Positions 1 through 22,657 of a stretch of DNA of 51,824 bases are shown in pieces (position 1 is the first letter of the stretch; every line of letters begins with the position of its first letter). Under the pieces are notes generated by a model. It saw only the letters and a program-made list of their open reading frames with translations. It was not told the DNA's origin and made no database searches. Location of the stretch: assembly GCA_008932935.1 (NCBI GenBank), contig WBXD01000001.1, positions 1 to 51,824 of the forward strand, read 5' to 3'. This DNA comes from Verrucomicrobiota bacterium. Its GTDB lineage: Bacteria > Verrucomicrobiota > Verrucomicrobiia > Verrucomicrobiales > Akkermansiaceae. The position numbers were made by a program, and so were the translations under genes.

Positions 1-240
1 CACACCCGCAGCAACGCCGTGGCGAGCGACATCACTGCGATCTATCAGTGGTCCACCGATCTCGTGAACTGGTTCAGCTCTGGCCAAACCAACAGCCAGG
101 GTGTCTCCGCAACCATCACCAGTGCGGTCATCACCGCCGCCAGCGCGCCGGACAACAACGTGATCGAGGCCACTGTGGCGCTCACCGGCGGGACTGCCAC
201 CCGCGTGTTCGCGAGGATCCAAGCTAGCCGAGCTCCATGA
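1..240 (+). CDS. C-terminal end of a secreted or surface protein (5'-truncated by the window edge), with a verrucomicrobial C-terminal domain
   Basis: Frame 1 is open from base 1 (HTRSNAVASDITAIYQWSTDLVNW...RVFARIQASRAP*). The 'YQWSTDL..W ... FARI' ending resembles the C-terminus of the next ORF. Confidence 0.7.
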   Translation, partial: HTRSNAVASDITAIYQWSTDLVNWFSSGQTNSQGVSATITSAVITAASAPDNNVIEATVALTGGTATRVFARIQASRAP

Positions 241-3200
241 GTGAACTGCGATACGATATGAAAATTGCCCCTACTGATCTCCGGCTGCCAAGTTTTTTCC
301 AAGCAACCTATCGATATTCACACGCTATGAACCAGCATAGAGTCCTTGAAAAGTCAATGCTGCTGTCGTTAGGTCAAATGTTCTTGGCTTGTGTCTACAA
401 GTCTTGGGTCTTGGGGCTGAGGCTAAGCGTCGCTAGATTATCCCGTGCGGCGGCTGCCGCGGTATGCTTCGCCACCGGAGTTTGCCTGCTGATGGGCCAG
501 GCGACGGCACAGGGCTACCTCGACAATAATTCGATCTATTCTAACCAGGACCCGAACACCGAAACCCGCCGATCGGACCATTTCCGGATGAACTTCGGCC
601 ACTTCAACCGCGATACCGGCACGCCGATGACCGAGCAATTGGCCCAGGGTAACCTCCAGGAGTACGAGCAAATGTGGAACCGCTGGGTCGTCGAAATGGG
701 CCTGCACGACATCAACGAGTCGGTGACTGCCCCCGACGGCAACAAATACCGCGCCAACTTCAATTTCCTCATGACCTGGGATGACGGCGGCGGCGGCGGC
801 GCGTATTCGAGCATGGACCCGGGCGGATTTTTCTACGCCATGTCCAATACGAGTAATGACCGCTATGATCCGCCCTCGGGTGCCACTCCGCATGAGTTTG
901 GCCACGTCTGGGAAGGTAGTTGCGCGGGCTTCAATGGCACGGATAGTTCGGGCTCTTGGTGGGAATGCACCGCCAACTGGATGTTGCTCCAGCTCCTCAA
1001 CGCCTACCCGCAGTCAGGTGGCTATCTCTATAACAGCGTGTTCTATCCGGCCCACGGCAGGGATTACTATGACTCTTGGATGATCTACGAAGCGGCGAAG
1101 GATGACCCGCGTTATGGCGCGGCCTGGGTTAATGAGCTGTGGACTAACGCCACCGCCGACCAGCGTGCACACGAATACATCCTCGACCGGATGATCCGGC
1201 TCGACACCTCGGGTTCCGCCGACAAGGCCGGTGCCATGAAAGACTTGTGGGGCGATATGGCTAAAAAAATGGTCACCTGGGATTTTGCGCGACAACGCTG
1301 GCTGGCCCAGGCCAACACCCCGTGGAATGGCGATACCTGGGAATGGTACACCCGCTGTCGCGCCCCCTTGGTCAAACTTGCCGGTACCACCGGCTGGTAC
1401 CGCCCGGCCCGCGAACACATCCCCCAACAATTCGGCTTTCATTTCGTCCCGCTGGCCGTGACGCCCGGCACCACTGTGAGCTGTAATTTCCAACCACTCA
1501 GTGATTTTGTTAGGCAGAGCGACTGGCGTGCCTGCCTGGTGGCCGTCAATACCCACGGCGAAGCCAGCTATTCGTCGCTGTGGAACATCGGCACCAACTC
1601 AATCACGCTTTCGGCAGACCAAAGCCAGCTTTATCTGATGGTCATCGCGGTGCCCAAGCCGATGAAAATCGGCGACCCGGTGTGGGCCGAATACACCCGC
1701 GATTCCGGTCTGCAATTCCCCTACACGGTGGCCTTTACCAATGCGACCCCTCAAAATGTCATCTATCCGGCGCAAAGCCACAGCGGGATGGTTCAGCATG
1801 CTAATGGCGGCGGGTGGAAAGCCACCAGTGCCAGCGTCGATGCCAGCGCCTACGTTGGGCCCAATGCGCAGGTGCTTGATACAGCCCAGGTCAGGGGCAA
1901 TGCCCGCGTCGAGGATTATGGAGTTGTTAGAAACGCTGCGCAGGTGCGGGACAACGCGGTGGTGTCTGGGCATGGGATGGTGTATGAGAATGCGCAGGTC
2001 TATGGCAATGCGAAGGTGAGGGATTGGGCGATGCTTTTCGGGAGCACCAAGTTATATGAAAACGCCAAAGCCATTGAGCACGCAGGTTGCGGCGGCACCA
2101 ATGATGTTGCCGGCAACGTCGTCTTGAAGGGCGTCACCTCGGTGTATAGCCCGTCCACCTTCAGCGGCAGCCTCATCACCGACGGCGACACCGCCAACGG
2201 CGGCACCGGCGACCACGGCGTGCATTTCGGCTGGCAATGGGGGCAGAATCCCGCGATTTTTCCCGCGCTAACGGACAATAAATACCAATACAGTGGGCTC
2301 ACCTTCGAGCGCGACAACGCGGTGTTCGCCTGCGACGAGTTTGGCATCAATCACGGCTATCTGATGAACGGCTGTCGCACGGCCAATGACACCGTCGCGC
2401 CCACCCGCGGCGGCCGGGTGCTGCCCTTGGACGGGGTAAGCCAGTATGTTGAACTGCACAATTCCGTCAATGATTTCAAGGACAGCACGTTTGCCGTGTG
2501 GTGCAAGCGAACCGGCGGCGCGGCCGACCAGCGCGTTTGGTCGCTGGGTGATGGCGGCAACAAAGTGATGTATCTAACACTAAACGCCGCCGCCACCGGC
2601 ACCTTGCGCTTTGTCATCAGCGACGGCACCACCACCCAGACGCTCGACGGGCCAGTGATTGCCGCCAATACCTGGCGACATGTTGCAGTGGTGTTCTCAA
2701 GCAGCACATGCACGCTGTATCTCGACGGGGTGGCGCTGTCCAGCAACGCGGCCATGTCTTTGCTGCCCGACAGCCTCAACGCGCCGTTGATGGAGAATGC
2801 CAACTACCTAGGCCGCGGCAATGCCGGCAACTATTTCCAAGGAAGCATGGATGAATTCCGGGTATTCAACAAGGCCCTGAGCGCCGCAGAAGTGACCGCT
2901 TTGTTCTCCACGGCCGCCCCCGCGCCGATCACCATTGGCGCCGACACCACCCCTCCGTCGCCCAACTCCGCGACCTGGCTGGTCGAACCCATGTCCAACG
3001 GCGACAGCTCCGCGACGATGAGCGCCACGCCCGGCACCGACGCCAGCGGCTGGGTGGAATATTTCTTCACCTGTGCCTCCGGCGGCGGGCATGACTCCGG
3101 CTGGGTTTCGTTCAACAAATACACGGATGTCGGTCTAACACCAGGATCGGCGCCAAGTTATACTGTCAAGATGCGCGACCGCTCGGGCAATACCACCGGA

Positions 3201-6200
3201 GTTTCCGCTACGGTCACCGCCACCCTCGCCACATCCAGTGCTGGCAGCGCCGGCTTCAGCTACGGCCCCATCGGCACTGCCGACGGCCAGATCACGATGA
3301 GCGCCACCAAGGGCAGCAGCCCCACCGGCAAGCTCGAGTATAAGTTTGACCGCACCCTGCCCACCACCGCCAGCAGTGGCTGGCAGTCAACGCCCACCTG
3401 GACCCAGACCGGTCTAACATTAGGAACGAGTTATACCTATACCGTCACCATCCGTGACGGCCGTGGCAACACCAGCAGCCCTTCGGTGCCAGTATCCGCG
3501 CTCGCCAGCGACACCGCCAGCCCCGCGCTGCCGATCACCGTGGCCCACTGGCAGATGCAGCCCTACGCCACCATCGACAACAAGGTCTGCATGACCGCCA
3601 CTCCCGTTCTCGAAAGCGGCGCGCAGATTTATTACCAGTGCGTGAGCGGCGGCGCTCCTGACAGCGGATGGCTTGCCGCGACGACAAGCGATGACGGCGG
3701 CAAGTCCTATTATGTCCGCTGGACCACACCCAAGGCGCAGGCCGACGGCACCTATTCCTACAAATACAAACTCAAGGATGCGGCGGGCAACGAATCCGCC
3801 TATTCCACCACCTATTCCGCAAAAATCACCCCTACCACAGGGTATCACAGTGCCACTTTCGCCGAGGTGGGCAGCTTGCCGGACGACTCTCTGGTGACGT
3901 TCAACGGAGTGGTCATGCAAACGTATGCTGATCATTATGTGGTCAAGGATGTGGCTAGCAACGCCACCATCACCGTCCGCTCTGATCTGTACGCCCAGGC
4001 GACCGATCCTACCAAGGCGCTCAAGCTCTGTCTGATCAAAGGCCACTTGTGGACCTTCAGCGGAACGCGCGTGGTGACCTATGCAGCTCTCACCCCGATC
4101 ATGGATCCACCGGCGTTCGCCGTCTCGGGCAAGATCCGCGATTCCAGCAGCGGCGCGGGCCTCGCCGGGGCGAGCGTGTTTTTCGCGACGCTGCCAGGAG
4201 CCGCGGCGAATCCAGCGCTCACGGCCACCACCGACGCCAACGGCAACTATTCCCAAGCGCTTCCCAACGGCTTATGGTATGTGGCGGCTGCGGCCCCTGA
4301 TCATTTCCCGGCGGCCGAGCAGACGCTTACGGTCAACGGCATGCCACTGGCCAACGTCAACTTTAGTCTGAATGCGGCCTCCACCATCAGCGCAAGTGTC
4401 GGAGCGGGCGGCTTGGTCAGTCCGTTCGGAGCGGTGCTGCTTAGCTACGGAACCAACCAGACCTTTGGCATCACGGCCAATAGTGGCCAGAGCATTGCCA
4501 GTGTCTTGATTGATGGGGTCGAACAGGGCTCGATCTCGAGTTATGTGTTCACTAACGTGACGAGCAACCACACGCTCGCCGTGACGTTCACCGCCAACTC
4601 CACACACATCCCGCAGACGGCCGGGCTGATCGACTCGGCGCTGGCCGCAAGCTTGCCGGCCAGTGGCCCGAGCGGCAATTGGGCCAGCTACCTGCCAGCA
4701 GGCAAGACCTACACTGCAATGGGGACGCCGACTCTGAACACGCTCAACAACGCGAAGTGGTCTCTCAATCTGCATAGCGACGGGGATGGTTTTGATTGCG
4801 GCGATCATGGTTCGACGGCTATTGCGTGCAACGGTGCCAGCATCGTGGCGGTTGTGAAGCCGCTGCGCAATACGACCACTGACGGCTGGAACTCGGTGGT
4901 GGATATCTTCTATGATCGGCTGGTGCTTGGCGTCATCAACGGCACCGGACAGATCTGCGTCAGGCGCAACGGCAGCAGCGATAGGAGCACCACCACCATC
5001 CCCGACGGCCAGATTACCGTCCTGACTTTGATTGTGCAGCCAGACGGATCCTACAAACTCTATGCCAATGGCACACAGGTCACCATGCCTAACAGCGGTG
5101 CCGTTGCCGGCGGCTTCACCTCGCTGGTGCCGGGTGTAGCGGGAGCGTATGCCACCCACATCAACATCGGCCGCAACAACCCCGACGGCTGGACTACGTT
5201 CAATGGCGATATGGGCGATTTCTTCATCTTCAACCTCGCCTTGAGTGATGCCGAACGCCAAACGCTCGAGGGTGACATGTCAAGCAAGTTCGGGGCCGCC
5301 GCACCGCGCATCATCACCGCGTCCGCCGGTTCGGGCGGTATCCTCAGCCCGAGCGGCAATGTGAGCGTGGCCAATGGTGGCAGCGCGACGTTCGTCGCTA
5401 AGCCCTTGACCGGTTATGCGCTTGCCCAACTCACGGTGGACGGCGTAAACCAGGGCGCGCTCACCAGTTACACGTTCAGCGACGTGGCAGCCAACCACAC
5501 GCTTACGGCTGCCTTCACCAGTGTGCCCACTTATACGCTCACGGCTGCCGCAGGGCCTAACGGGTTGATCAATCCCGCTGGCGCGCTGGAGGTCAATGCC
5601 GGCTCAAGCCAGACGTTGAGCCTGAGGCCGGCCACCGGCTATCAGGTGGCTGACGTGCTGGTGGATGGAGTGTCGCAAGGTGCGCTCACCAGTTACACGT
5701 TCACCAATGTGCAGGCGGCGCACACGGTAGCAGCCACCTTCACCCTGCAAATCTGCACCATCAGCGCATCCGCCGCAAGTGGTGGCTCCATCAGCCCAAG
5801 CGGCACCGCAAATGTGAATTTCGGATCTAACCAAACATTCACGTTTACGCCCAACACGAACTACGCCATTTCCAGCGTGCTGGTGGACGGCGTGGACGTT
5901 GGGGCACCGGCGAGTTATACCTTCAACTCGGTGATTGCCAAGCACACGATAGCGGCAGTGTTCATCGCCGGCACGCGCAAGATTCCGGCTGCGGACCGGC
6001 TTTTTGTCGCCCTGGATACCAAGGATATTGTTGGTAGCAGCGCGATCACGTCCTGGCCGTGGCTGTGGCCGACAGGTAAATCCCTGACGAACATCGCCTC
6101 GCCCACGGTGCAAACCCTCAACAGTGTGAAATGGGAATGGAACATGCGCACCGACAGTGACGGCTTCCGCGTCGGCCAATATACCACATCAATCCCAGTC

Positions 6201-9200
6201 ACCGGCGGCACCATCATCTGCGCCATCAAGCCGACCCGCAACACCACCGCCGACGGTTGGAACTCGGTGGTGGACGTGATGTATGGTGAAATGGTGCTCG
6301 GGGTCAACAACGCCACCGGCCTGCCGCAGCTCCGCCTTAAAAAAGCCATGGTGACGGGCACCACGGCGATTCCCGACGGGCAAAAAACCATTTTGACGTT
6401 GGTGGTTCAACCCGGTGGAGCCTACACGGTCTATGCCAACGGCGTGTCGATGATGACCGGCAGCAGCGCGGCGATGACCGAGTGGCTGCCCGGTAATACC
6501 ACCGGCAATGCTAGCGCGTTTGACTCTTATATTGACGTCGGGCGCAGCGACCCCGACGGCTGGTCTGCGTTCAACGGCAACATTGGCGATGTGTTCCTGT
6601 ATAAAACCGCGCTAACCGATGAGCAGCGGCAGCGCCTGGAGGCGGACATGATGAGCAAGTTCGGTATCAGCGGCGCTAGCAGTGGCACTTACGCCATCAG
6701 CGCCTCCGCCGCCAGCGGCGGCGCGATCAGCCCGGCGGGCGCAACGCAGGTGAACTCGACTGCCAACCAGCCATACACCATCACACCCAATGGCGGCTAT
6801 GCCATTGCCGACGTGCAGATTGATGGCATTTCCGTCGGCGTGGCCGGTAGCTATACTTTCACCAACGTGCTCGCCAACCACACGATCACCGCGGCGTTTG
6901 TCACGGCGACGTCCTGCACGATCAGCGCTTCCGCCGGTGGCGGCGGCAGCATCAGTCCGAGCGGCGCAGTCGTGGTGAACCTGGGAACCGACCAGACTTT
7001 CAGCATCACGCCTGACCCGGGCTACACCATCGCGCAGGTAATGGCGGACAGCGTGCCGCTAGGAGCGCTTGCCAGCTACACTTTCAGTAATCTGCTTGCG
7101 GACCACGTGATCAGCGCCACGTTTGCAGCCATGCCGGTGCCGTCGCTCGCACTGGCCCGCCACGCCGGCAGCGCCAGTTCTTCTAACTATGGCGACGCAG
7201 TGAGCTTCGATGTGAGTGTGAGCGGAGTTCCAGCAGCGACCGGCAGCGTGACCCTCAAAGACGGCGGTGCCAGCGGAACGAGTCTCGCCAGCGCCACTCT
7301 CAGCAGCGGTGCCTGCACCATCACCACGAGTGCGCTGGCAGCTGGCAGCCACCCTAACATCGTTGCGGTCTATTCCGGCGATGGCAACTTGGCCCCGGGC
7401 ACTTCCAGCGCTGTGAGCGGCCAAACGGTTAGCCAGAAAGCTCTCACGGTGTCAGGGGCGGTCGTCACCAGCAAGCCCTACGACGGCACCGCCGCCGCGC
7501 TCATCAGCAACGGCAGCTTGAACGGCTTGGTCGGCAGTGACGCGGTCACTCTCGACAATGCGAGCGCCGGCACCTTCGTTAGCAAAAACGCAGGCTCCGG
7601 CCAAGCCGTTGGCACGGCGATGACAATCTCGGGCGCGGCGGCGACTAATTACTCACTGGTGCAACCGGCGCTAACAGGAACGATCACCGCCAAGGGCTTG
7701 ACTGTCACCGGCACGCTGGTCACCAGCAAGCCCTACGACGGCAGCACGGCCGCCACTCTCAGCGCCGGAACCTTGCTCGGCGTGCTCAGCGGCGAGACGC
7801 TTAACCTGCTGCCCAGCGGCACTTTCAACACCAAAGACGTCGGTACCGCCAAGCCGGTGACATCGACCTCGACTCTATCCGGCACGCAGCTGGCTAATTA
7901 TGCGCTCACCCAACCCACCGACTTGACCGGTACCATCACCGCCAGAGTGGTGAGTCTTACCGGGAGCCGGAGCTATGACGCAACGTCGGGCGTGACAGCC
8001 GCAAACCTGACAATTTCCAACAATGTGGACGCGGCCAGTCTCAGTCTGACGGGCAGCGCCACGCTGGCCGGCAAGGATGCCGGGTCGCAGGCCATCGTTA
8101 CCAGTTATGTGACGCCGGCCCGCGTGGGAAGTGCCGCCACCGGCAGCACGGGTGCCGCGGCCGCGAGTGCTTTAGCGGTGACCCTGGCCGCGCCCACGGC
8201 TGGAAATACGCTCATCGCGGTGATCTCGACGCGCAGTGCGAGTGCCAGCGCGGTTAGCAGCATCGCCAGCAGCGGCACGGCCTTGACCTGGATACGTGCG
8301 GTGCAAACCACGCCATCGATCTCCACGACAACCGAAATCTGGTATGCGCCAGTGCTTGCCGGTGCGGGTACGTCCGTGACGATCAGCCTGTCTGCCTCAG
8401 TGTTTGCCGCCGCCGTGGTGACGGAGTATTCCGGCGTGCTAACGGCCAATGCGGTGGACGTAACGGCTAACAATAGCAACGGATCCAACGGCACCGCGGC
8501 CTCCACCGGTACCACCACCGCCACCACCCAGGCTAACGAATTGGCGGTCGGCGGCATCGGCCTCAGGTCCAGCGGCTATACCTTGGGGACTCCGACCAAT
8601 GCGTTTTCTCTAATCACCAACGCCGCCTCCTCCAACGCCACCGCAGTCAACAACGCCAGGGTCTATGCGTTTGACAAAATCCTCACGACATCCGCAACCG
8701 TCACCTCTGGCGGCACCGTCAGCACCACGTCGCGCTGGTCCGGCGCGCTTGCCACCTTCCGTGCGGCAAGCTCCGCAAGCCTAGCGCTGGCCGGCCCGGC
8801 AGCCACTAACTACACGCTGGCCGGGGTCGGCGGCTCGGTGAAGATTAACCCTAAGCCACTGCTGCTCACTGGCCTGGCCACCCCTAACCGTGCCTACAAT
8901 GGCAACGCCACCGCCGCCCTAACCGGATCTGCGGCGCTGCTGACGGCAGAGGCCGCCGGTGCCGGCACCAGTGATGACGGCAAGCCCCACGCCGGCGACA
9001 CGCTGACTCTTGGCGGCACGCCCAGCGGCGCGTTCGCAGACAAGCACGCAGCCACTAGCAAACCGGTGACAGTCACCGGCCTGACCATCGGCGGCGCACA
9101 GGCCGCCGACTACACCCTTGCCCAACAGTCGGGTCTAACAGCAAATGTCGCGCAGCTCCCGGTCACGGTGACGGCGGTGACCGCCAGCAAGCCGTATGAC

Positions 9201-10025: not shown

Positions 10026-10043
10026 CCCGCGAGCCGACGCTCC

Positions 10044-10070
10044 GGAGGGACACGGCCAGCTTGGCCGTGT
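10044..10070 (+). terminator. GC-rich hairpin after the giant gene (terminator-like or REP-like)
   Basis: ACACGGCCA-gct-TGGCCGTGT, a 9-bp stem at 10050-10070, preceded by GGAGGG. No U-tract follows. Confidence 0.35.
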
Positions 10071-10290
10071 GTGAGAGCGGGGGTGATCCATCGTTGTGCG
10101 CTTTGGCTGTGCATTGGCACACGCCGCCGCAGCAGCATCGTCATCCCTTGGTCATTTCGCAAATTGGGCAGCGAATTCGCGCATTGGCCATTGTCCCGCC
10201 TAGCAGCCTGATGTTTGATCGATCCCAAGCACTGGGCATGCAGTCATCCCGCATGCCGAGTGCTGCCATCCCATTGATCCAGCAGCCCCC

Positions 10291-12897
10291 ATGCAGCCAC
10301 CACCCCGCCGCGCCGTTCTAGCCATTTTACTCGGCAGTTTTGCTGCCATCAGCCAGCCCGTGGCCGGGCAAGCGCCCAGCGCGAGCATTCACGTCGATGT
10401 GGCGCAAGCGCAGCAGCCGGTATCGCCGACGCTATACGGGATCTTCATGGAGGAGATCAGCCATGCCTTTGATGGGGGAATTTATGCGGAACTCATTCAG
10501 AATCGCAGCTTTGAGGAAGGGGTGTTGCCGCCGGGCATGCAGCTGGTGAAGAAGGATGACGGGGGTCTCAAGATGGAGTTGGAAAGACTTCCAGCCGGGG
10601 TGCCCAAGGATAAGTGGCCCATCCCTTGGCCGTGGTTCAACAATTGCGCCTGGCAACCCGAGCGCGCCTTGTTGGGCTGGACGCTGGACAAGCGCGGCGG
10701 TGCCAGCGGTGCGATGCAACTCACCGAAGCCAATCCGATGAATGCCGCTTCCAGCCGCTCGCTCGCCATGAAGGTCGGCGCTCCCAGCGAATCCAACGGC
10801 CGCTGTGCCTTGATCAACAGTGGCTACTGGGGCATAGCAGTGCGGGCCGATACCCGTTATAACCTGAAATGGTACCTGCGCCCCGGCACCTTTCAGGGCA
10901 CCGTGAGCGCCACCCTCGAATCGAAGGATGGCAAGGTGCTCGGCCAACACGACTTCGGCAAGCTCAGCCCGGGCAACACCTGGCAGTGTCTAACGGCAAA
11001 ATTGGTAGCCACCGCCAGCGATCCCGAGGCGCGCTTCGTGTTGTCGTTCTGCGGTACGGGTGAGCTGCAGGTGGACTGGGTGTCGTTGTTTCCACCGACC
11101 TATAAGAACCGTCCCAACGGGCTACGGGTGGATCTGGCGAAGCATTTGGAGGCCCTCAAGCCGTCGTTCATCCGCTATCCCGGGGGTTGTTATGTGGAGG
11201 GCTTGTCGTGGGAATCGGCCCCGGATTGGCGCAAGATGGTGTGCCCGCCCGAACAACGGCCAGGCCAGTGGGGGTATTGGCAATACCGCTCCACCGATGG
11301 CTTCGGCTATCATGAATTCCTGCAATTCTGCGAGGACATCGGCTCCGACGCAATGTACGTGGCATTTTGCGGCATGACCGTGCACCCGGACAACAGCGTG
11401 CCGCTCGACCAACTCGACCCGGTCATCCAACAGGCGCTCGACTCAATCGAATACGCGCTCGGACCGGTGAACTCGAAATGGGGCGCGGTGCGGGCCAAGA
11501 TGGGCCATCCCAAGCCGTTCCCACTCAAATACATTGAGATCGGCAACGAGCACCCGCCCGCCAGTTACGGCGAGTATTACAAAAAATTCCGTGCCGCCAT
11601 CAAGGCGAAGTATCCGCAAATAACCGTCATCATGAGCATGTTCTGGAGCGGTCTCAACACACCGGCCATCGCCGCGGCCGGCGATGAGGCGATCGACGTG
11701 GTCGACGAGCATGCCTACCGGCCGTCGGGCTGGATCCGCAACAACTTCGATTACTTCGACAAATACCCGCGCAAGCCCTGGAAAATCTATGTTGGAGAAT
11801 ACGCCCATCACCACGGCGGCGGCGATTGGAGTGCGGCGATGGACGACTCGGTCTATCTGATGATGCTGGAGCGCAACGGGGACTTGGTCAAGATGGCGAG
11901 TTATGCGCCGCTGTTTGTCAACGTCCACAATAGTTGTTGGGGCGTGAACCTCATCGAGTTCGATTCCTCGCGCAGCTTCGTGCACTCGTCCTATCAGGTC
12001 CAGAAGGCCTTCGTGGAAAATCGCCCCGACGTGAATCTGGCCACCGCCGTGGAGGTGACGCCCAAGCCGGATCCGGCCCAACCGTTGTTTGAAGGCAAGT
12101 TCGGCCTGGGCTCTTGGAATACCGCCAATGAATTCAAGGAATTGCGTATCTATGACGCTCACAACCAGCTCGTGCTTAGCGAGGATTTCGCCAATCTGGA
12201 GCGCTGGGACACCCCTGGCACCGGCCAATGGAAAACGGAAAACGGCGTGCTCAAACAGACCGACACCACCCTCGGGCCCATCAGTTTGTTCCTCAAGGAG
12301 AAGCTCAAGTCTGGGCGTGTCACGGTCAAGGCACGCCGGGTGGGCGGCAGCGAAGGATTTTTGATGTTCTTCCACGCCGTCGGGCCGGAGCGCTACATGT
12401 TCTGCAACTACGGCGCCGCTCAAAACCACTTCTCCGCCATTCAGGGCACCCCGTCCAATTCCATCGCCACAAAGGGCGGCGGCGATCTCCAGGGCCCCAT
12501 CGACAACGAGCGTTGGTATGACATTAGTCTCGTTCTAACAAACAATTCGGCGGAGGCGTTGCTCGACGGCAAGCGCGTCAGCAAGCTCGAGGCGGACGTG
12601 ATGCCGGCGTTTTTCGCCAGTTCCGGTTATCAGAAAAAGGACCACACCGTCGTGGTTAAGGCCACCAACTACAACGCCACTCCATTGGTTGCCTCGATCC
12701 AACTCGCCGGGGTGACCAGCGTAGCTGCCAAAGGCCAGCATATCGTCATTCGCGCCGCCAAGCCGGAGATCGAGAACTCCCTCGATGCTCCCAACCGCAT
12801 TGTGCCGCAGGTGCTGCCTCTCGCCAATTGCTCCAAGAGTTTCCAAGTGACCCTGCCGCCATACTCGGTCAACGTGCTACGCCTCCAAGCCCAGTGA
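10291..12897 (+). CDS. GH51 alpha-L-arabinofuranosidase, secreted
   Basis: Signal peptide; LYGIFMEEISHAFDGGIYAELIQNRSFE; IRYPGGC; YIEIGNE (acid/base); VDEHAY; YVGEY (nucleophile); ERNGDLVKMASYAPLF; C-terminal LPPYSVNVLRL. Confidence 0.92.
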   Translation: MQPPPRRAVLAILLGSFAAISQPVAGQAPSASIHVDVAQAQQPVSPTLYGIFMEEISHAFDGGIYAELIQNRSFEEGVLPPGMQLVKKDDGGLKMELERLPAGVPKDKWPIPWPWFNNCAWQPERALLGWTLDKRGGASGAMQLTEANPMNAASSRSLAMKVGAPSESNGRCALINSGYWGIAVRADTRYNLKWYLRPGTFQGTVSATLESKDGKVLGQHDFGKLSPGNTWQCLTAKLVATASDPEARFVLSFCGTGELQVDWVSLFPPTYKNRPNGLRVDLAKHLEALKPSFIRYPGGCYVEGLSWESAPDWRKMVCPPEQRPGQWGYWQYRSTDGFGYHEFLQFCEDIGSDAMYVAFCGMTVHPDNSVPLDQLDPVIQQALDSIEYALGPVNSKWGAVRAKMGHPKPFPLKYIEIGNEHPPASYGEYYKKFRAAIKAKYPQITVIMSMFWSGLNTPAIAAAGDEAIDVVDEHAYRPSGWIRNNFDYFDKYPRKPWKIYVGEYAHHHGGGDWSAAMDDSVYLMMLERNGDLVKMASYAPLFVNVHNSCWGVNLIEFDSSRSFVHSSYQVQKAFVENRPDVNLATAVEVTPKPDPAQPLFEGKFGLGSWNTANEFKELRIYDAHNQLVLSEDFANLERWDTPGTGQWKTENGVLKQTDTTLGPISLFLKEKLKSGRVTVKARRVGGSEGFLMFFHAVGPERYMFCNYGAAQNHFSAIQGTPSNSIATKGGGDLQGPIDNERWYDISLVLTNNSAEALLDGKRVSKLEADVMPAFFASSGYQKKDHTVVVKATNYNATPLVASIQLAGVTSVAAKGQHIVIRAAKPEIENSLDAPNRIVPQVLPLANCSKSFQVTLPPYSVNVLRLQAQ

Positions 12898-12932
12898 TGC
12901 CCACCTATCATTCAATCAATCATCACAACCCC

Positions 12933-15326
12933 ATGTCCAAACCATACAATCGTACTGGAATGAAAAATACCGCAACATGGACCGCGACGGTCTTGCTGGC
13001 ATGCGCCGCCGCAGTTGCCGCCCAAGGCACCATCACGGTGGGCGTCGACAAGCCCGGCGTCAGGGTGAGTCCCACGCTGTGGGGTATTTTCTTTGAGGAC
13101 ATCAATCTTTCCGCCGACGGCGGACTTTACGCCGAGCTTGTTAGAAATCGTTCGTTCGAGGACTCGGATCAAGCGGAAAGCTGGGTCATCAAAGCCGGCG
13201 GCACGGCCAAGGCTGAAATGACCGTCGTGGCTGATCAGCCCGTGAGCGCCACAAACCCGCATTCGCTCAAGGTTACGGTGAGTGGCAGTGGCAGTGCGGG
13301 AGTGGCTAACAGCGGCTATTACGGCATGTCCGTCGTTCAGGGAGATACATACATTTTGACGCTGGATGCCCGCGCCGGCACCGACTTTACCGGCCCTCTC
13401 ACGGTCACGCTGGAGGCTGCCGATGGCACGGTGTGCGCGGCGGGACAAATTGCCGGCCTGACGCCCGCGTGGCAGCCCTACAAGTTGTCGCTTAAGGCGG
13501 CGGCCACCGACACCAAAGCGCGTTTGGTCATCACTGCGGGCAAGCCCGGCACATTATGGTTAGATATGGTATCGCTCATACCGGAGAAAACTTGGAAGGG
13601 TCATGGCTTCCGCAGTGATCTGTTCGAGATGCTAGTGGCGCTCAAGCCCGCATTCGTCAGATTTCCCGGCGGTTGTTGGGTTGAGGGCGACACGATGAAG
13701 GAAGCCTATCGCTGGAAACAGACCATCGGTGATATTGCCGAACGGCGCACTCAGAATAACATCTGGGGCTACAAGGCCACCCACGGCATCGGTTATCATG
13801 AATACCTCGTGATGTGTGAGGACCTCAATTCAGAACCCCTGTTTGATATCAACTGCGGCATGTCCCACCGCGAAAATGTCCCCATCGACCAGATGCAGGA
13901 ATACGTCCAGGACGCCCTCGACGCCATCGAGTATGCTAACGGCCCGGCCAACAGCACTTGGGGCGCATTGCGTGCCAAGGCCGGCCATCCCGCACCGTTT
14001 CACCTCAAGATGATGGAAATCGGCAACGAAAATGGCGGCGCCGCCTACAACGAACGCTATGCCTTGTTTCATGATGCCATCAAGGCCAAGTACCCCGACA
14101 TGCAACTCATCGCCAACGTCTGGGGCGGCATGCCATCCAACCGGGAAATCGGCATCGTCGACGAGCACTACTATAGCAACCCGGAATTTTTCATCGGCAA
14201 TTCGTCGAAGTACGACAGTTATGACCGCGGCAAGTTCAAGGTGTTCGTGGGTGAGTACGCGGTGACCGAGGGCACGGGGCAGGGGAGTCTGCGTGGGGCC
14301 GTCGGCGAGGCTGCGTTCATGACCGGCATGGAACGCAACTCCGATGTTGTGGCGCTCGCCTCTTACGCGCCGCTGTTCGTCAATATCAATCACAAGCGCT
14401 GGAATCCCGATCTGATTAACTTTGATAGCTCGAGGGCCTATGGCATCCCATCCTATTATGTGCAGAAGATGTTCGCCGAAAACCGCGGTGCCGTCGTTCT
14501 GCCCGTCGAAGTCCAGACGTCCGACACGATTGATGCTATCATCGGAATGGTCGGGGTGGGCACTTGGAACACACAGGCGGAATACAAGGACATCAAGGTG
14601 CAGCGCGGCAACGAAACGCTGCTCAAGTGTGATTTTGTGGATGGCACCAAGGGCTGGGATCTCCACGGTGGTGAGTGGAAGGTGCACGACGGGGTGCTTG
14701 GGCAGACGGCGAGCGGAAAAGACTTCCGCGCCGTCATCGGCGACCCCGCTTGGAGCGACTACACCTATACGCTCAAGGCGCGCAAGACCGGCGGCGATGA
14801 GGGCTTCCTAGTGATCTTCGGGACGGATGGCAGCACCAGTAAATCATGGTGGAATATCGGCAGTTGGGGCAATTCCAAGCATACCATCGAGATGGCAGGC
14901 GGTAACAGCCAGGGTGTGGATGGTCACATCGAGACCGGCCGCTGGTATGATATCAAGGTGGAAGTGATGGGGTCCGGAGTGAAATGTTATCTGGATGGCA
15001 AGCTCGTCCAGGAAATGCATCGGCCTGCCGTGCGCTCGCTTCATGTCTCCTCAACCCTCTCGTCAGATGGCAAGGACATCATCCTCAAGGTGGTCAATGC
15101 TTCAAGCGCCAACCAAGCCACGGCCATCAAGCTGAACGGTGCAAAAAACATCGCCGCCAGCGCCAAGGTGATCGTGCTGACTTCGGTAAATTCGAGTGAC
15201 GAAAATTCGATCACCGAGCCTGCCAAGGTGGTGCCCGTCGCAAGTGAGATTTCCAATGCGGCGGCGAGTTTCACCCACACGTTCCCGCCTAACTCGGTGA
15301 GCGTACTCAGGATCCGCAAGAATTAA
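12933..15326 (+). CDS. GH51 alpha-L-arabinofuranosidase, secreted (paralog of the previous gene)
   Basis: LWGIFFEDINLSADGGLYAELVRNRSFE; VRFPGGCWVEG; MEIGNEN; VDEHYY; FVGEYA; ERNSDVVALASYAPLF. Start taken as ATG 12933 (alternative 12960), just before the signal peptide. Confidence 0.92.
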   Translation: MSKPYNRTGMKNTATWTATVLLACAAAVAAQGTITVGVDKPGVRVSPTLWGIFFEDINLSADGGLYAELVRNRSFEDSDQAESWVIKAGGTAKAEMTVVADQPVSATNPHSLKVTVSGSGSAGVANSGYYGMSVVQGDTYILTLDARAGTDFTGPLTVTLEAADGTVCAAGQIAGLTPAWQPYKLSLKAAATDTKARLVITAGKPGTLWLDMVSLIPEKTWKGHGFRSDLFEMLVALKPAFVRFPGGCWVEGDTMKEAYRWKQTIGDIAERRTQNNIWGYKATHGIGYHEYLVMCEDLNSEPLFDINCGMSHRENVPIDQMQEYVQDALDAIEYANGPANSTWGALRAKAGHPAPFHLKMMEIGNENGGAAYNERYALFHDAIKAKYPDMQLIANVWGGMPSNREIGIVDEHYYSNPEFFIGNSSKYDSYDRGKFKVFVGEYAVTEGTGQGSLRGAVGEAAFMTGMERNSDVVALASYAPLFVNINHKRWNPDLINFDSSRAYGIPSYYVQKMFAENRGAVVLPVEVQTSDTIDAIIGMVGVGTWNTQAEYKDIKVQRGNETLLKCDFVDGTKGWDLHGGEWKVHDGVLGQTASGKDFRAVIGDPAWSDYTYTLKARKTGGDEGFLVIFGTDGSTSKSWWNIGSWGNSKHTIEMAGGNSQGVDGHIETGRWYDIKVEVMGSGVKCYLDGKLVQEMHRPAVRSLHVSSTLSSDGKDIILKVVNASSANQATAIKLNGAKNIAASAKVIVLTSVNSSDENSITEPAKVVPVASEISNAAASFTHTFPPNSVSVLRIRKN

Positions 15327-15342
15327 CAATAACATCACCCCT

Positions 15343-18300
15343 ATGAACACCTGTTATAGATTCGCGCAAGCCGCCGCCGCGCTGCTCATCGGCCAGTGCC
15401 TGTTGGTCGGCAACTGCCTGGCTCTGACCAAACAGGTTTCGCTCATCACCAAACAGCCAATCGGCGACTTGGCGGTGGCGGGCCTCCTCTCGATTGACTT
15501 GCACGCTGAGTTTATGGTGTCGCGCACCTACGAGAAGGACACCGTCCTGAATTGGTATAACTGCGGCTATTCCGGAGGCGGCAATAACACCTCTGTCGGC
15601 GGCGACTTCGGCGACTTCGGCTTCCAGGTGCCATACAAGGAGCGCGATGCGAAATACCCGCGCGCCGTAACCATCGGCAACGTGCGTGCCGTGCACTTCG
15701 ATGGCAATGATATCCTGAAGGGGAACTTCAGCGCGGAATCCCAACTCGTCGGCACCAAGGATATGGCCATCGAGGTCTGGCTGCGCAACGAAAAACCCGC
15801 CAAAGGCGAAGTCATCCTCGGCTGGCAGTCGCGGGACGGCGCTGAGGCCTCCGCGCCGTTGATCTATCCGAATGGATTCAGCGGTTCGGACAAATGGCGC
15901 CACCTGGTGGTGAACTGTTCTGCCGCCAAGGAACAGTGGTATCTCGACGGCGTACTGGTTTCCAGCGGCAAACGCATGATGATCCTCAAGGAAGTACACG
16001 TCATGGTGTTAGGCGGCGCATCCGCCGACAAGCCGTCGTTCAAGGGCGATCTGGCCGCGGTGCGACTGCACGACGCAGCCATGACCGAGGAGCAAATCGC
16101 CCACAACTTCAAGGGCGGTGTCATGCTGGGCACCGAAATGCACAACTGGTGGCGGACCGAACCCGACAAGTGGTGGGTGAAGGAATCTGAGCATTTCCGC
16201 CACTGCGTGGACAAGAAGGAAATGGCCGCATGGACGTCGCAACAGTTGAAGGAATTCAACGAACAGGTTCCCCTCATGTTCGACATGGCAGAGATGGTCT
16301 ATCATACCTATTCGGAGCGCCTCGCCATGCGCAGTTCCGTGGTGAGCGTGCAACGGCAGGACCGCGGCGACGGTATCAAATATAAGATTCCTATCCAGCC
16401 CAATGAAGGCAGCGTCATGGGGTCTGACGGTCATTTTGGCTGGTCTTGCCAGGGCGCTGGGCACATCAATCCACATGAACTGGTGCACGGCTGGCAGAGT
16501 ATGACCGGTGGTATGGCGGGCAGTTTTTGGGAGGCACACGCGAATTTTCCCCAAACATATAACGGGATCTATCAGACGTTGCCGCCCAGCCTCGTTAGCC
16601 GGGTCTGCATGTATTTCCCCGCCCACGGCCGCAATTACTATCATGATCGTCTGATGTTTGAGCATCTCGCACAGACGCCCGAATACGGGCCGATGTCGGT
16701 TTCCAAGCTCTGGTATGACGGGCCGACCGCAACCGAAAAAAACCCTTATCCATGGATCGTGTTCGATCGGGTATTTCCGCACGCACGCCTGTCATTTTCC
16801 GACGAATACATGCGGATGTTGATGCGCAATGTCACGTGGGATTATATCACCTATGTGGAAGCGGCGGCTGGCAAGGGCAACACGCCCTATGGCAATGACC
16901 ATGTGGTCAGTCCCGTCAACCGCTATCAGGAGGATGCCAAGGGCGCTGAAAAAGACATTCAGCGCTATTCCCGCATCACACTCGAGAAGATTCCTTATGA
17001 ACCGGAGTGGTGGCGCGTCCCCAAAGAAATGGCACCTCAACAATTGGGCTGGAATATCTGCCCCATGACCGCCAAGCCGGGCAAGGTCTCGGCTATGTTG
17101 TCAGGATATGTCGATCCGCAACACGGGGCCGACTGGCGCGCGGGATTCGTTGGGGTGGATGCGGACTCCCAACCGGTGTACGGCGAAATCGCCAAACCGG
17201 GGCAGCTCATGCAGTTTGAGGTCGGCAAATCCATCAAGCAGCTCTACCTCGTCGTCTGCGCCACCCCCAGCAAACTCAGCAGCATCAACATGGTGGGTGA
17301 TTTCCGCTCCTTCGAACAGGAACCCTTCCCTTACAAGGTGAAACTGGCGGGCTGTGAACCGCTCAACTTGATGATCTCCGACAAAGCGCATCTCAAGGGA
17401 GCTCACCACGCCAATGGCGGCGGGTATGTCGAAAGCAGTGCCAAAGTGGATGCCACCGCATTTGTCGGACCCAATGCGCGCGTCTTGGGCAATTCAAAGG
17501 TGTTAGGAAATGCGAGTATTCTGGACTATGCAGTCGTCCAGGACTCGACGGTGTGTGATCGTGCGGTGGTCAGCGGCTTTGCCCTCGTCAGCGCCAATTC
17601 CATGGTTCAAGACGATGCCAAGGTTAGGGATTATGCGAGGGCGACGCACGCCATCATCAAGGATGATGCTAAAATCCTTGAGCACGCCGAGCAACATGAC
17701 AAAACATGCAGCGGCAACGCCGTGCTCAAGGGCGGAGCGTCCTCGGCAGGCAATGTGAGCGGCACCGCCATGATCGATGGATCATACGCCAAAAGCAACG
17801 AAGTGACTAAAGGCAAATGGTTCACGTGGAGTTGGAGCACTGGCAAGAACGATGGCGAACTTGACGAGGAGTTTGGCGGATTGTATGCCGATTATCTTTT
17901 CACCATTGAGCATCCATGGATGGCGCATGACGTCTTCGGCGCGACCTGGGGCTATCTCGTCAACAATCCGGCATTCGCGGTCGTCTCGGATATGGAGCGG
18001 GCCAAGCCCATTGTGGCGGATGCCGGTGCCGGCACCCCCCCTGCCAACCGCGTGCTGGTTTTGAACGGCAAGAACCAGTTCGTCGAACTGCCTAAAGATG
18101 TCGCGGATATGGGAAAATGTACTTATACTGCGGAATTCAAGTGGGATGGCGCCCGCGACGCCACCCGCGTATTCGAGTTCACCAATTCTAACGGCGACGC
18201 GTTGTGGCTGAGTCCTTCGGAAAAAGGTCGCTTGATTTTTGGCATCCGCAAGGGCGCTAAAATCGAAGGTGTGGCAGCCACCAAGGCCGCCAACAAAGGG

Positions 18301-18522
18301 GAGTGGGTCACTGTGCGAGTGGTGCTCAACGGGCCGCGTGCGTCGATTTTTCTCAACGGGGTGAAGGTCGGGGAAAACCCCCGCATGACCCTGCGTCCTG
18401 ATAGTGTCGCCGCTACGCAATGTTACCTCGGACGCGGCCTGAAGGGCGGATTGTTCGGCGGCATGATCGGCAGGTTCACCATCCACTCGGTGGCGCTCAC
18501 GGATCGCATACCTCAAAAATGA
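15343..18522 (+). CDS. Second Svx/AvrXca-like (DUF6055-type) HExxH metallopeptidase, with N- and C-terminal LamG domains and a hexapeptide repeat
   Basis: Signal peptide; N-terminal LamG (FDGND, WRHLVV, FKGDLAAVRLHD); PHELVH...FWE; YFPAHGRNYY; PQQLGWN; DWRAGFV; HHANGGGYV...AFVGPNARV. These blocks are all shared with ORF 237-10025. Confidence 0.85.
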   Translation: MNTCYRFAQAAAALLIGQCLLVGNCLALTKQVSLITKQPIGDLAVAGLLSIDLHAEFMVSRTYEKDTVLNWYNCGYSGGGNNTSVGGDFGDFGFQVPYKERDAKYPRAVTIGNVRAVHFDGNDILKGNFSAESQLVGTKDMAIEVWLRNEKPAKGEVILGWQSRDGAEASAPLIYPNGFSGSDKWRHLVVNCSAAKEQWYLDGVLVSSGKRMMILKEVHVMVLGGASADKPSFKGDLAAVRLHDAAMTEEQIAHNFKGGVMLGTEMHNWWRTEPDKWWVKESEHFRHCVDKKEMAAWTSQQLKEFNEQVPLMFDMAEMVYHTYSERLAMRSSVVSVQRQDRGDGIKYKIPIQPNEGSVMGSDGHFGWSCQGAGHINPHELVHGWQSMTGGMAGSFWEAHANFPQTYNGIYQTLPPSLVSRVCMYFPAHGRNYYHDRLMFEHLAQTPEYGPMSVSKLWYDGPTATEKNPYPWIVFDRVFPHARLSFSDEYMRMLMRNVTWDYITYVEAAAGKGNTPYGNDHVVSPVNRYQEDAKGAEKDIQRYSRITLEKIPYEPEWWRVPKEMAPQQLGWNICPMTAKPGKVSAMLSGYVDPQHGADWRAGFVGVDADSQPVYGEIAKPGQLMQFEVGKSIKQLYLVVCATPSKLSSINMVGDFRSFEQEPFPYKVKLAGCEPLNLMISDKAHLKGAHHANGGGYVESSAKVDATAFVGPNARVLGNSKVLGNASILDYAVVQDSTVCDRAVVSGFALVSANSMVQDDAKVRDYARATHAIIKDDAKILEHAEQHDKTCSGNAVLKGGASSAGNVSGTAMIDGSYAKSNEVTKGKWFTWSWSTGKNDGELDEEFGGLYADYLFTIEHPWMAHDVFGATWGYLVNNPAFAVVSDMERAKPIVADAGAGTPPANRVLVLNGKNQFVELPKDVADMGKCTYTAEFKWDGARDATRVFEFTNSNGDALWLSPSEKGRLIFGIRKGAKIEGVAATKAANKGEWVTVRVVLNGPRASIFLNGVKVGENPRMTLRPDSVAATQCYLGRGLKGGLFGGMIGRFTIHSVALTDRIPQK

Positions 18523-18551
18523 GTGTAATCAACAGAATCAATTTATCTTAC

Positions 18552-21014
18552 ATGAAAACAACCTATAGTATAACTCTCTCCGCCGTCGTCTTGACGCTCG
18601 GTGTTCTCCCGGCTTTCGCCGATACGGTGGAAGTCGTGGAGCGTCCCGATATGCAAGGCGCCAACCCGTATTATCCCGGCAACAAGGCTCCACTGTTGCC
18701 CAGTCCTTATATCCGCCTGCCGCTGTGCGCCGTCAAGCCGCAGGGCTGGCTCCTCAAACAACTGCAACTCCAAGCCAACGGGTTTCACGGCCACCTAGGC
18801 GAAATTAGCTCCTTCCTCAATAAGAAAAACAATGCTTGGCTCGACCCCGCCGGCAAAGGTGACAATTTCTGGGAAGAAGTGCCGTATTGGCTGCGCGGAT
18901 ATGCGGCGGCGGCGTTTCTGCTCGATGATCCCAAACTGGTGGCCGAGGCCAAGGCCTGGCTCGAGCCGTCGATCATCGGCCAGCGTGCCAACGGGTACTT
19001 CGGCACCGAGTCGCTGTCCGGTCTCAACGGCCAGGAACCGGACTTGATGCCGCATTTGAACATGATGTATGCCTACCGGTTCTACTATGATTATAGTGGT
19101 GACAAGCGAGTGCTCGACCTGCTGACAAAATTCTGTCACTACGAGCTGACGCTTGATGACAGCAAGTTCTTCCGCGGTGGCTGGGGTGTGTCGCGCAACA
19201 GTGACAACATGGACATGGTATACTGGCTGTATAACCGCACCGGCGATCCCAAGCTGCTGGAACTCGGCGAAAAGCTCATGCGCACCGGCCAAAAGTGGAT
19301 GGATCGGATCGGCGGTGGTCACAACGTGCAGACCAGCCAGGGCTTCCGCAAGCCGGCTATTTTCTATCAGCAAAACAAGGATCCCAAGTACCTCGAAATC
19401 GCCGATTCCAATTGGACGGCGCTCTACGACCAGTACGGGCAGGTTCCCGGCGGCATGTTCGGTGGCGATGAGTTCGCCCGGCCAGGCTATGGCGACCCGA
19501 AGCAGTCGATCGAAACCTGCGGGGCGGTGGAGATGATGTTTTCCGAGCAAATCCTCTTCCGCATCACCGGCGACCTGAAATGGATGGACCGCTGCGAAAA
19601 TATCGCCTTCAACACGTTCCCGGCCACCATGACCGCCGACGCCAAGGCGCTACGCTATCTAACCAGCCCCAACCAGTCTAACTCCGATGCCCGCAGCAAG
19701 GCCCCCTCGCTGTGTAATGACGGCGAGATGCAGGTGATGGATCCGCACAACCACCGTTGCTGCCAGCACAACGTCGGCGTCGGCTGGCCGCATTTTACTG
19801 AAAGCCTGTTTGAGGCGACCCCCGACCGCGGCCTGGCCGCCGTGATGTATGCGCCCTGCACACTCAGCGCGCAGGTCGGCGACGGCACCAAGGTGACCAT
19901 CGGGGAGCTGACCAAATACCCGTTTGAGGAGAGCATTCAGTTCAACATCAAGCTGGCCAAGAGCGTCGCCTTCCCGCTCTATCTGCGCATTCCTGCGTGG
20001 TGTGACGCCCCGGCCATCAAGATCAACGGCAGCGCCATCGCGCTGGCGGCCAAGGGTGGGCAACTGGTTTGTGTCAAGCGCACGTGGAAGGACGGTGACA
20101 AGCTCGCCCTTAATCTACCCATGGTTATCAAGCTCAGCCGCTGGGCCAAGAACCATGACAGCATGTCGGTTAACCGTGGGCCACTGACGTATTCTATCAA
20201 AATTGGTGAGAACTACGTGCGTCATGGCAACATGGATCCACAGGCACCATGGCCGGCCTGGGAGATTAAGCCGAGCTCGCCATGGAATTACGGGCTGGTG
20301 GTGGACGCCATACAACCCGCCAAATCCATCACGCTGGTGAAAAAGGCCTGGCCCGCAGACGACCAGCCGTTTGCGTTAGAGTCCGCGCCGCTTGAGTTGA
20401 AGGCCAGCGCCAGGCGGATTCCCAGCTGGGGTGAAAACTACTGGGGCACTGTGGACCGTCTTCAGGCTTCTCCAGTCAAAGTTGATACCAAGACTGAGAC
20501 GGTGACGATGCTGCCGATGGGCGCGTGCCGCCTGCGCATGACTGCGCTGCCCGTCATTGGTGAGGGCCCGGACGCCAAGCCGTGGTCGAAGTATCAGGAG
20601 CCGGTGTCGTCGTGGTCCGAGGATGTTGGGATTTTGAAAACCATCACGGATGCGTCCGATCCGAAGAATTCGCACGGCGATGACAAATGTTTTTTGATGT
20701 ATGGCTCAAGCCTGAGTGGCTCTAAACAGTGGATCATCATGCCCTTCGACAAAGCCCGCACCCTGTCAAAAAGCCGCACTTACTGGATGGATGAGCAGTA
20801 TCCCACCGGCGGCGTGCGCGTGCCTCAAGCCATCGCGCTGTTCTACAAGGACGGCGACGCTTGGAAGCCCGTGCCCAACCCCAAGGGCCTGGCTTGCGAG
20901 ATGGATAAATACAACGACGCAACGTTCACTCCGGTCACCACCACCGCGATCAAGATGGAAATCCAGTTCCAACCCGGCCGTTGCGGCGGCCTGTTCCGCT
21001 GGCGCTTGGAATGA
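18552..21014 (+). CDS. GH127-like (HypBA1-type) beta-L-arabinofuranosidase with a C-terminal F5/8-like domain
   Basis: VKPQGWL; WEEVPYWLRG; GHNV; IETCGAVEMM; RCENIAFN; RCCQHN (Cys/Zn catalytic motifs); TKYPF; YLRIPAW; RGPLTYS. Start ATG 18552, or 18519 coupled to the upstream stop. GH127 versus GH146 cannot be resolved by eye. Confidence 0.85.
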   Translation: MKTTYSITLSAVVLTLGVLPAFADTVEVVERPDMQGANPYYPGNKAPLLPSPYIRLPLCAVKPQGWLLKQLQLQANGFHGHLGEISSFLNKKNNAWLDPAGKGDNFWEEVPYWLRGYAAAAFLLDDPKLVAEAKAWLEPSIIGQRANGYFGTESLSGLNGQEPDLMPHLNMMYAYRFYYDYSGDKRVLDLLTKFCHYELTLDDSKFFRGGWGVSRNSDNMDMVYWLYNRTGDPKLLELGEKLMRTGQKWMDRIGGGHNVQTSQGFRKPAIFYQQNKDPKYLEIADSNWTALYDQYGQVPGGMFGGDEFARPGYGDPKQSIETCGAVEMMFSEQILFRITGDLKWMDRCENIAFNTFPATMTADAKALRYLTSPNQSNSDARSKAPSLCNDGEMQVMDPHNHRCCQHNVGVGWPHFTESLFEATPDRGLAAVMYAPCTLSAQVGDGTKVTIGELTKYPFEESIQFNIKLAKSVAFPLYLRIPAWCDAPAIKINGSAIALAAKGGQLVCVKRTWKDGDKLALNLPMVIKLSRWAKNHDSMSVNRGPLTYSIKIGENYVRHGNMDPQAPWPAWEIKPSSPWNYGLVVDAIQPAKSITLVKKAWPADDQPFALESAPLELKASARRIPSWGENYWGTVDRLQASPVKVDTKTETVTMLPMGACRLRMTALPVIGEGPDAKPWSKYQEPVSSWSEDVGILKTITDASDPKNSHGDDKCFLMYGSSLSGSKQWIIMPFDKARTLSKSRTYWMDEQYPTGGVRVPQAIALFYKDGDAWKPVPNPKGLACEMDKYNDATFTPVTTTAIKMEIQFQPGRCGGLFRWRLE

Positions 21015-21476: not shown

Positions 21477-21499
21477 CATGGTGACAGATAAATAGTAGA
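21477..21499 (+). repeat. Left 23-bp inverted repeat
   Basis: catggtgacagataaatagtaga; perfect inverted copies at 22789-22811 and 22943-22965. Confidence 0.95.
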
Positions 21500-21542
21500 G
21501 AATCGTTCTGGATTGTGCGGTTTTTGGTGGTATCGTGCTAAT

Positions 21543-22640: not shown

Positions 22641-22657
22641 ATTCCACTCCCACCTAC
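22629..22657 (-). repeat. REP-like element (GTAG plus hairpin) overlapping the RAYT stop codon
   Basis: The minus strand reads GTAG-GTGGGAGT-ggaattcaa-ACTCCCAC: a GTAG tetranucleotide directly 5' of an 8-bp stem. Confidence 0.7.

Follow-up and report, generated by a model that had tools for sequence, protein, structure and literature searches.

Svx peptidases of Pectobacterium, Dickeya and Xanthomonas (NCBIfam model NF040510) are exported proteins of about 600 amino acids, in which a zinc site of the gluzincin type, HExxH-x(8,28)-E, is followed by a left-handed β-helix (PMC9266454, PMC10815107, PMC13164431). A predicted sugar site formed by W136, G137 and N171 has been described along with the zinc motif, and Svx-like genes have been noted in free-living proteobacteria, for which the part of that report available to us gives no function (PMC9266454). 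The Pectobacterium (Pba) enzyme is reported to degrade an arabinose-rich extensin fraction from carrot (about half carbohydrate, of which 82% is arabinose), but not mucin or concanavalin A, and also to cleave azocasein; deletion of the β-helix abolished extensin cleavage, and the binding of arabinan through this helix rests on docking (PMC13164431). Here, we analyse a stretch of 51,824 nucleotides (contig WBXD01000001.1, positions 1 to 51,824, of assembly GCA_008932935.1; hereafter the window) from a member of the Verrucomicrobiota, family Akkermansiaceae, which, unlike Pectobacterium, Dickeya and Xanthomonas, is a free-living freshwater organism. Two Svx-like peptidases, pep1 and pep2, are encoded in it beside glycosidases, and this cluster is probably part of a system that feeds the cell on extensin-like hydroxyproline-rich glycoproteins (HRGPs) of plants or green algae.

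Three other described systems invite comparison. The hydroxyproline (Hyp)-arabinoside sets of Bifidobacterium longum and Xanthomonas euvesicatoria comprise the glycoside hydrolases (GH) HypAA (GH43), HypBA2 (GH121) and HypBA1 (GH127/146) (PMC6085000, PMC10850190). Removal of the terminal α-1,3-linked arabinofuranose (Araf) is assigned to the GH43 enzyme, next to which lies a prolyl oligopeptidase pseudogene (PMC6085000), and enzymes of the GH127/146 type are reported to act on arabinan and arabinogalactan protein (AGP) as well (PMC10850190). The window cluster resembles these sets in encoding α- and β-L-arabinofuranosidases together and in the Cys3-Glu zinc site of its GH127-like enzyme; it differs in having GH51 instead of GH43, a divergent GH127-like branch, and endopeptidases. 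The M60 O-glycopeptidases of mucin utilization (ZmpB/ZmpC) are likewise gluzincin glycoprotein peptidases acting alongside glycosidases, but their targets are animal N-acetylgalactosamine glycans and they have no β-helix. Finally, Hyp is catabolised by the anaerobic HypD and the aerobic epimerase pathways, the genes of which share loci or genomes with relatives of our peptidases but are absent from the window; the enzymes for the release of Hyp from glycoproteins are named in the same source as unidentified and an open challenge (PMC6219649).

Architecture of the gene cluster

Five open reading frames (ORFs) on the forward strand occupy positions 237-21014 and encode a DUF6055 peptidase, two GH51 enzymes, a second DUF6055 peptidase and a divergent GH127 enzyme, and both the ORFs and their Pfam domains confirm the order given in an initial annotation of the window. 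The peptidases pep1 (237-10025, 3262 amino acids, likely start at 327 or 378) and pep2 (15343-18522, 1059 amino acids) enclose the α-L-arabinofuranosidases GH51a (10291-12897) and GH51b (12828-15326, likely start at 12933 or 12960), and the GH127/146-like β-L-arabinofuranosidase gene (18420-21014, likely start at 18552) ends the series. The overlaps at GH51b and at the GH127-like gene are only apparent, as the called starts are too long. With the likely starts, genes 2 to 5 are spaced by 16-35 bp; a gap of 265 bp separates pep1 from GH51a, and no sigma-70 promoter or terminator was found between these two. Judging by signal peptides, which were assessed by eye, the five products are probably Sec-exported; their description as secreted stands in this sense, which covers the periplasm as well as the outside.

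In the two closest relatives of the window only GH51a, pep2 and the GH127 gene are retained, with GH51a adjoining pep2, and GH51b is missing from both loci. The initial annotation had treated the five genes as a single unit; the conserved core is limited to these three genes, and close orthologues of pep1 lack such neighbours. The source assembly is a 2.24 Mb genome, 71% complete, of which the window is contig C1 (G, L and C numbers designate genomes, loci and contigs). The two datasets with strong matches to the window sequence are both freshwater metagenomes, and no RNA dataset was among those listed. A freshwater source fits an algal as well as a plant-litter substrate and does not separate the two.

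Peptidases outside the Svx clade

The Pfam profile DUF6055 (PF19527), named at initial annotation as one to search with, is matched by pep1 with 130.8 and by pep2 with 122.1 bits, above the gathering cut-off of 27. Their zinc motifs, HEFGH-x19-E in pep1 (891-977; H219-E220-x-x-H223 and E243) and HELVH-x14-E in pep2 (16474-16545; H378-E379-x-x-H382 and E397), fit the spacing of NF040510, and in both an Asn stands four residues past the third zinc ligand, as in Svx. This HExxH..ExxxN/D pattern is present in 28/28 and 32/36 aligned homologues of the two clades. The sequences HANGGG and AxVGP, which mark the start of the β-helix, were likewise found in both proteins, as had been noted earlier. Pep1 consists of a signal peptide, a predicted gluzincin domain, a β-sandwich, the left-handed β-helix, three LamG, four YDG and an MBG domain, a make-up that suggests a probable surface or extracellular location. 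In pep2, the same three central domains are flanked by one LamG domain on either side. These added modules, together with the greater length of both proteins, set them apart from Svx.

Structure models of pep1 and pep2 show a helical catalytic domain followed by the β-sandwich and the left-handed β-helix. The helix of the pep2 model superimposes well on LpxD (Z = 17.4, r.m.s.d. = 2.9, 160 residues aligned), and that of pep1 gave a match with Z = 13.8 and r.m.s.d. = 2.4 over 120 residues. Similarity of the pep1 model (pLDDT 80) to M1 aminopeptidases is only moderate (Z = 9-10, r.m.s.d. = 3.4-4.8, 202-282 residues aligned). Foldseek searches with the two whole models returned no significant catalytic-domain match (for pep1, none at E 0.001); M60 enzymes appeared in weak rows only (E 7e-3), a wide search with pep2 was dominated by β-helix matches, and a PDB sequence search with pep1 returned β-helix proteins only.

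Kinship with Svx/AvrXca had been proposed initially, and the domain layout agrees with it. Membership, on the other hand, fails both by score and by tree. On the equivalog model NF040510 pep1 and pep2 score 136.3 and 146.1 bits against a cut-off of 625, and a quick IQ-TREE phylogeny of 68 domain rows (midpoint root, SH-aLRT support only) places them in separate clades outside an 11-row Svx clade (support 99). On these two grounds, pep1 and pep2 are Svx-like proteins, not Svx. A paralogue on contig C3 of the same genome lies inside the Svx clade and scores 620.8 bits, just under the cut-off. In both pep1 and pep2 the Asn of the predicted Svx sugar site is retained and the W-G pair is absent; since the pair is also absent from the C3 paralogue, it is not a strict marker of Svx. 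Relatives are numerous (4326 cluster representatives at E 0.001; 381 relatives of pep2 at E 1e-10), and their distribution among genomes is patchy, with DUF6055 over its cut-off in 8/120 genomes of the family and 7/400 of the phylum.

Companion glycosidases

Genes 2 and 3 contain the GH51 domains ASD1_dom and Alpha-L-AF_C. Both enzymes carry the motifs NE and GEY, which we take to be the acid/base and nucleophile motifs of GH51 catalysis, and the best PDB match of GH51b is MgGH51 (E 7e-91). Gene 5 encodes a GH127 catalytic domain (PF07944, 141 bits) and a middle domain. Its putative zinc ligands E365 and C367 (E365-x-C367), C447 and C448 form a Cys3-Glu site and correspond to E723, C725, C804 and C805 of Bll3HypBA1 (GH127/146). 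PDB matches are otherwise distant (best 5mqo, E 8.5e-18) and the protein forms its own branch among its neighbours; by these comparisons it is a divergent GH127/146-like β-L-arabinofuranosidase with no close characterised relative. The initial assignments (GH51, GH51 and GH127-like) hold for the three glycosidases. What does not hold is that GH51 is the known chemistry for the terminal α-Araf, the characterised bacterial enzyme being of GH43 (PMC6085000). Neither GH121 nor a GH43 HypAA is among the five window genes (GH121 was not searched for elsewhere in the genome), and, by Pfam, none of the five encodes an endo-arabinanase or a xylanase.

Neighbourhoods and co-occurrence

A scan of GTDB genomes yielded 46 loci of the pep2 type from Verrucomicrobiota, Lentisphaerota, Planctomycetota, Armatimonadota, Bacteroidota and Bacillota. 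Forty of these, one per genome, were used for counting, after removal of two near relatives of the window (L032, L070) and of four second loci (L051, L062, L075, L077). Neighbours were labelled with Pfam (136 proteins of at least 400 amino acids) and by BLAST with labelled seeds, a procedure that weak members can escape; the seed BLAST overlooked the GH127-like gene of locus L015, for example. A GH127/146 gene lies in the fetched pep2 locus of 8/40 genomes, against 0.91 expected from the copy number of each genome, and the neighbour enrichment anticipated at initial annotation is therefore found for pep2. The control family GH29 occurs in 4/40 loci against 0.99 expected. The enrichment of GH127 is real, about twice that of the control, and is in part general clustering of carbohydrate-active enzyme (CAZyme) genes.

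The pep1 set consists of 56 metagenome loci, many of them on short and redundant contigs. GH127 or GH51 lies nearby in 7/25 loci of distant pep1 relatives, and L015 combines a pep1-clade gene with M24, GH36 and GH127-like genes. In the source genome, GH127-family genes adjoin two of the four other DUF6055 loci (C3, with DUF5695, and C30, with a GH36 α-galactosidase); of the remaining two, C116 adjoins GH2 and C22 lacks such a neighbour. A Novosphingobium plasmid (L030) carries a true Svx (834 bits) with DUF5695, dipeptidyl peptidase IV (DPP IV), GH127/146 and GH43, and three homologues of the C3 paralogue bear an AbfB arabinofuranose-binding domain. No GH127 neighbour was found for the DUF6055 gene of a Clostridium felsineum plasmid, and a motif scan of the collected loci gave nothing further.

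A second association concerns Hyp. HypD is over its cut-off in 24/40 pep2 genomes versus 8/400 sampled genomes of the phylum. Within the phylum sample it occurs in 4/7 DUF6055-positive and 4/393 negative genomes (p 2e-6), and in a class sample centred on genome G303 in 6/9 positive (5/8 without the centre) and 7/162 negative ones. In L040, HypD (1227 bits, cut-off 1100) lies about 3 kb from the pep2 orthologue. The G303 locus (L158/L084/L159), in a single-contig genome, holds a pep2-clade peptidase among four GH127/146 genes, together with pyrroline-5-carboxylate (P5C) dehydrogenase, DPP IV, HypD and its activase, aminopeptidase P and a major facilitator superfamily (MFS) transporter. In the Bacteroidota genome G590 (L161/L147), a DUF6055 peptidase gene ends a long catabolic and CAZyme run. 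It encodes a DHDPS-like protein, an aldehyde dehydrogenase, a Pro-racemase-family epimerase, an FAD oxidoreductase, an amino-acid permease, DPP IV, GH127, DUF885, DUF5695, GH42, GH43, an M24 peptidase and GH36. The epimerase, DHDPS-like, aldehyde dehydrogenase and oxidoreductase genes presumably constitute the aerobic Hyp pathway, and two kin genomes have the same run over the fetched part. The loci of G303 and G590 are two unrelated cases that unite a DUF6055 peptidase, GH127 enzymes, proline-specific peptidases and Hyp catabolism. The features targeted by such loci, α- and β-Araf, α-galactose (α-Gal), X-Pro bonds and Hyp, match the composition of extensin as described in PMC5371791.

Discussion

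The activity, substrate and location of the encoded proteins and the order of their action are what we infer from gene order, domains, motifs and the neighbourhood and co-occurrence counts. At the cell surface, the large modular pep1 would bind the intact glycoprotein and cut it with the aid of its β-helix, as Pectobacterium Svx does, and pep2 would make further cuts in arabinosylated fragments of the backbone. During or after this cutting, GH51 may take off the terminal α-Araf and the GH127-like enzyme the β-Araf from the glycopeptides, whereupon peptides and sugars would be imported and catabolised by genes outside the window. The window is most likely a partial HRGP utilization locus; candidates for uptake and processing lie elsewhere in the genome, on C4, where a GH127 pair adjoins a peptide symporter, and on C18, where another adjoins an M24-like peptidase. 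A glycoprotein role gains support because Pba Svx cuts extensin and pep1 and pep2 keep its β-helix and a predicted gluzincin domain, and the nutritional role on HRGPs put forward initially is strengthened by the links to Hyp and proline catabolism. More broadly, and with somewhat less assurance, we favour the view that Svx/DUF6055 peptidases perform the backbone-cutting step of loci for HRGP utilization, widespread and undescribed, that free-living bacteria from several phyla carry. Such loci would couple the endopeptidase with α- and β-arabinofuranosidases, α-galactosidase, proline-specific exopeptidases and Hyp catabolism; the virulence factor of phytopathogens would have been co-opted from this group, and new enzymes of the pathway would be found in DUF5695 and in the divergent GH127 branch.

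The initial annotation had the arabinose stripped before the backbone is cut. The same substrate could indeed be processed in this reverse order, with the arabinofuranosidases removing the chains extracellularly and the peptidases able to cut only afterwards, but we regard this as quite unlikely. Some GH146 enzymes do release Araf from backbone Hyp of a glycoprotein (PMC10850190), Nakamura et al. expected deglycosylated HRGP to be more sensitive to proteases, and the W-G pair of the sugar site is absent from both peptidases. Cutting before or during stripping is nevertheless preferred because Pba Svx cleaves extensin still bearing its arabinose, for which it needs the β-helix (PMC13164431), and this helix is kept in pep1 and pep2; furthermore, the surface-type repeat domains of pep1 are absent from all three glycosidases. 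It is also unlikely that the region is a general carbohydrate island, in which GH51 and GH127 would act on side chains of arabinan, arabinoxylan or arabinogalactan and the peptidases would be broad secreted proteases with no common substrate. The activity of GH127/146 enzymes on arabinan and AGP, the azocasein cleavage by Svx, the frequency of GH29 and sulfatase neighbours, and the position of pep1 and GH51b outside the conserved core would all suit such an island. It is opposed by the lack of endo-arabinanase and xylanase genes, by the roughly twofold stronger enrichment of GH127 relative to GH29, and by the links to HypD and proline-specific peptidases, which would not be expected for pure polysaccharides. 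Very improbable, finally, is a shift of the pep1 and pep2 clades to another glycoprotein or Hyp source (AGP-type, sulfated or fucosylated algal, or collagen-like), or a role of pep1 chiefly as an adhesin. The deep, well-supported split from Svx, the changed sugar-site residues, the fucosidase and sulfatase neighbours and the large share of binding repeats in pep1 would accommodate these possibilities, but the zinc ligands are conserved throughout both clades, and β-L-arabinofuranosidase neighbours suggest plant-type glycans more than collagen.

Several observations weigh against an HRGP utilization system. No GH127 neighbour is present in 32/40 pep2 loci, and sulfatases adjoin 10/46 loci, a count for which no expectation was computed. 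The host genomes are general glycan degraders, with GH127 in 35/40 and GH29 in 36/40; co-occurrence of GH127 at the level of genomes was accordingly rejected as evidence. Close pep1 orthologues (55-92% identity) have GH127 or GH51 nearby in 0/31 loci, and in 0/17 of those flanked by 5 kb or more, so that the predicted arabinofuranosidase neighbourhood does not extend to them. In the family sample, 4/8 DUF6055-positive genomes are without a GH127 match (p 0.058), and 4/8 Bacteroidota matches, two of them on short contigs, are without a CAZyme neighbour among the seeds used. Pep1 and pep2 share 31% identity and each is only 25-30% identical to a Xanthomonas Svx, and the W-G pair, predicted to bind α-Gal-Ser, occurs in 0/28 and 0/36 members of the two clades. 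As to HypD, the samples overlap and related genomes are not independent, the association may in part reflect an anaerobic lifestyle of glycan degradation, and HypD also serves the breakdown of collagen. The window itself has no gene for a proline-specific peptidase or for Hyp catabolism, and the 71%-complete source genome yielded no HypD-like gene. A Pro-racemase-family, epimerase-like gene of that genome (406 bits, under the cut-off of 450) was rejected as evidence, such genes being present in 74/120 family genomes (24/51 in another count).

Related loci and other features of the window

The C3 paralogue, a near-cut-off Svx member and a closer relative of Svx than pep1 or pep2, shares an operon with genes for a GH127/146 enzyme and for DUF5695 (C3:30181-37521, L006), a trio that recurs on the Novosphingobium plasmid. 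Two further operons of the source genome contain GH127 pairs. One (C18:357-10097, L154) also encodes the M24-like peptidase and an unannotated 969-residue protein that in L035 and L074 is a neighbour of the pep2 orthologue; the other (C4:12090-19700, L155) encodes an oligopeptide:H+ symporter. DUF5695 stands beside DUF6055 peptidases in several lineages (L006, L030, L125, L130, L146, L161). That it, or either of two recurring unannotated neighbours, is GH121 was rejected, as no PDB match was obtained; in the Atlas, DUF5695 matched clusters of its own family and a single six-hairpin glycosidase set at 0.96, which is a lead only. DUF5695 is a candidate new enzyme for these glycans. DUF885 recurs in L030, L138 and L161, and in L030 a single frame (3485-6355) spans an Ldh_2-family domain and DUF885. 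The DUF6055 gene of L079 (G314:C24) has one internal TGA and may be broken or recoded. In the 3.1-Mb genome G910, eight of nine DUF6055 matches are partial.

Downstream of the cluster, a Y1 (IS200/RAYT-like) transposase gene (21513-22640) lies within a region (21477-22969) bounded by a 26-nucleotide inverted repeat, and the right end of this region carries a tandem duplication of 154 nucleotides. Allowing up to 4 mismatches, the genome contains about 48 occurrences of the inverted repeat; copies of the transposase, full or partial and 80-91% identical, number about 20, and many of them lie at contig ends. A GH4 α-galactosidase gene (28130-29569; NCBIfam 548 bits, over the cut-off) follows 7 kb downstream of the cluster, and its product could remove Ser-linked α-Gal inside the cell. 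Type II secretion/pilin-like genes, with N-methyl motifs, occupy 33843-49576 on the minus strand, together with genes for a prenyltransferase-fold protein, ExbB/ExbD and tetratricopeptide repeat (TPR) proteins; hipA is located at 50405-51628.

Implications

In the literature covered, mainly open-access texts without their supplements, so that a prior mention is possible, we found no paper tying Svx/DUF6055 to arabinofuranosidase or Hyp-catabolism loci. The parts each have known relatives; what is new is that they are combined, with hitherto unstudied Svx-like clades, in a probable glycoprotein-utilization locus. According to PMC5371791, every plant wall contains extensin-like glycoproteins, and in algae like Chlamydomonas they account for most of the wall. 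The loci supply candidate enzymes for each step that frees Hyp from wall glycoproteins, give DUF6055 a likely role and DUF5695 a lead, and are a possible source of glycoproteases for the analysis of plant wall proteins. They also suggest a nutritional origin for a virulence peptidase of crop pathogens.

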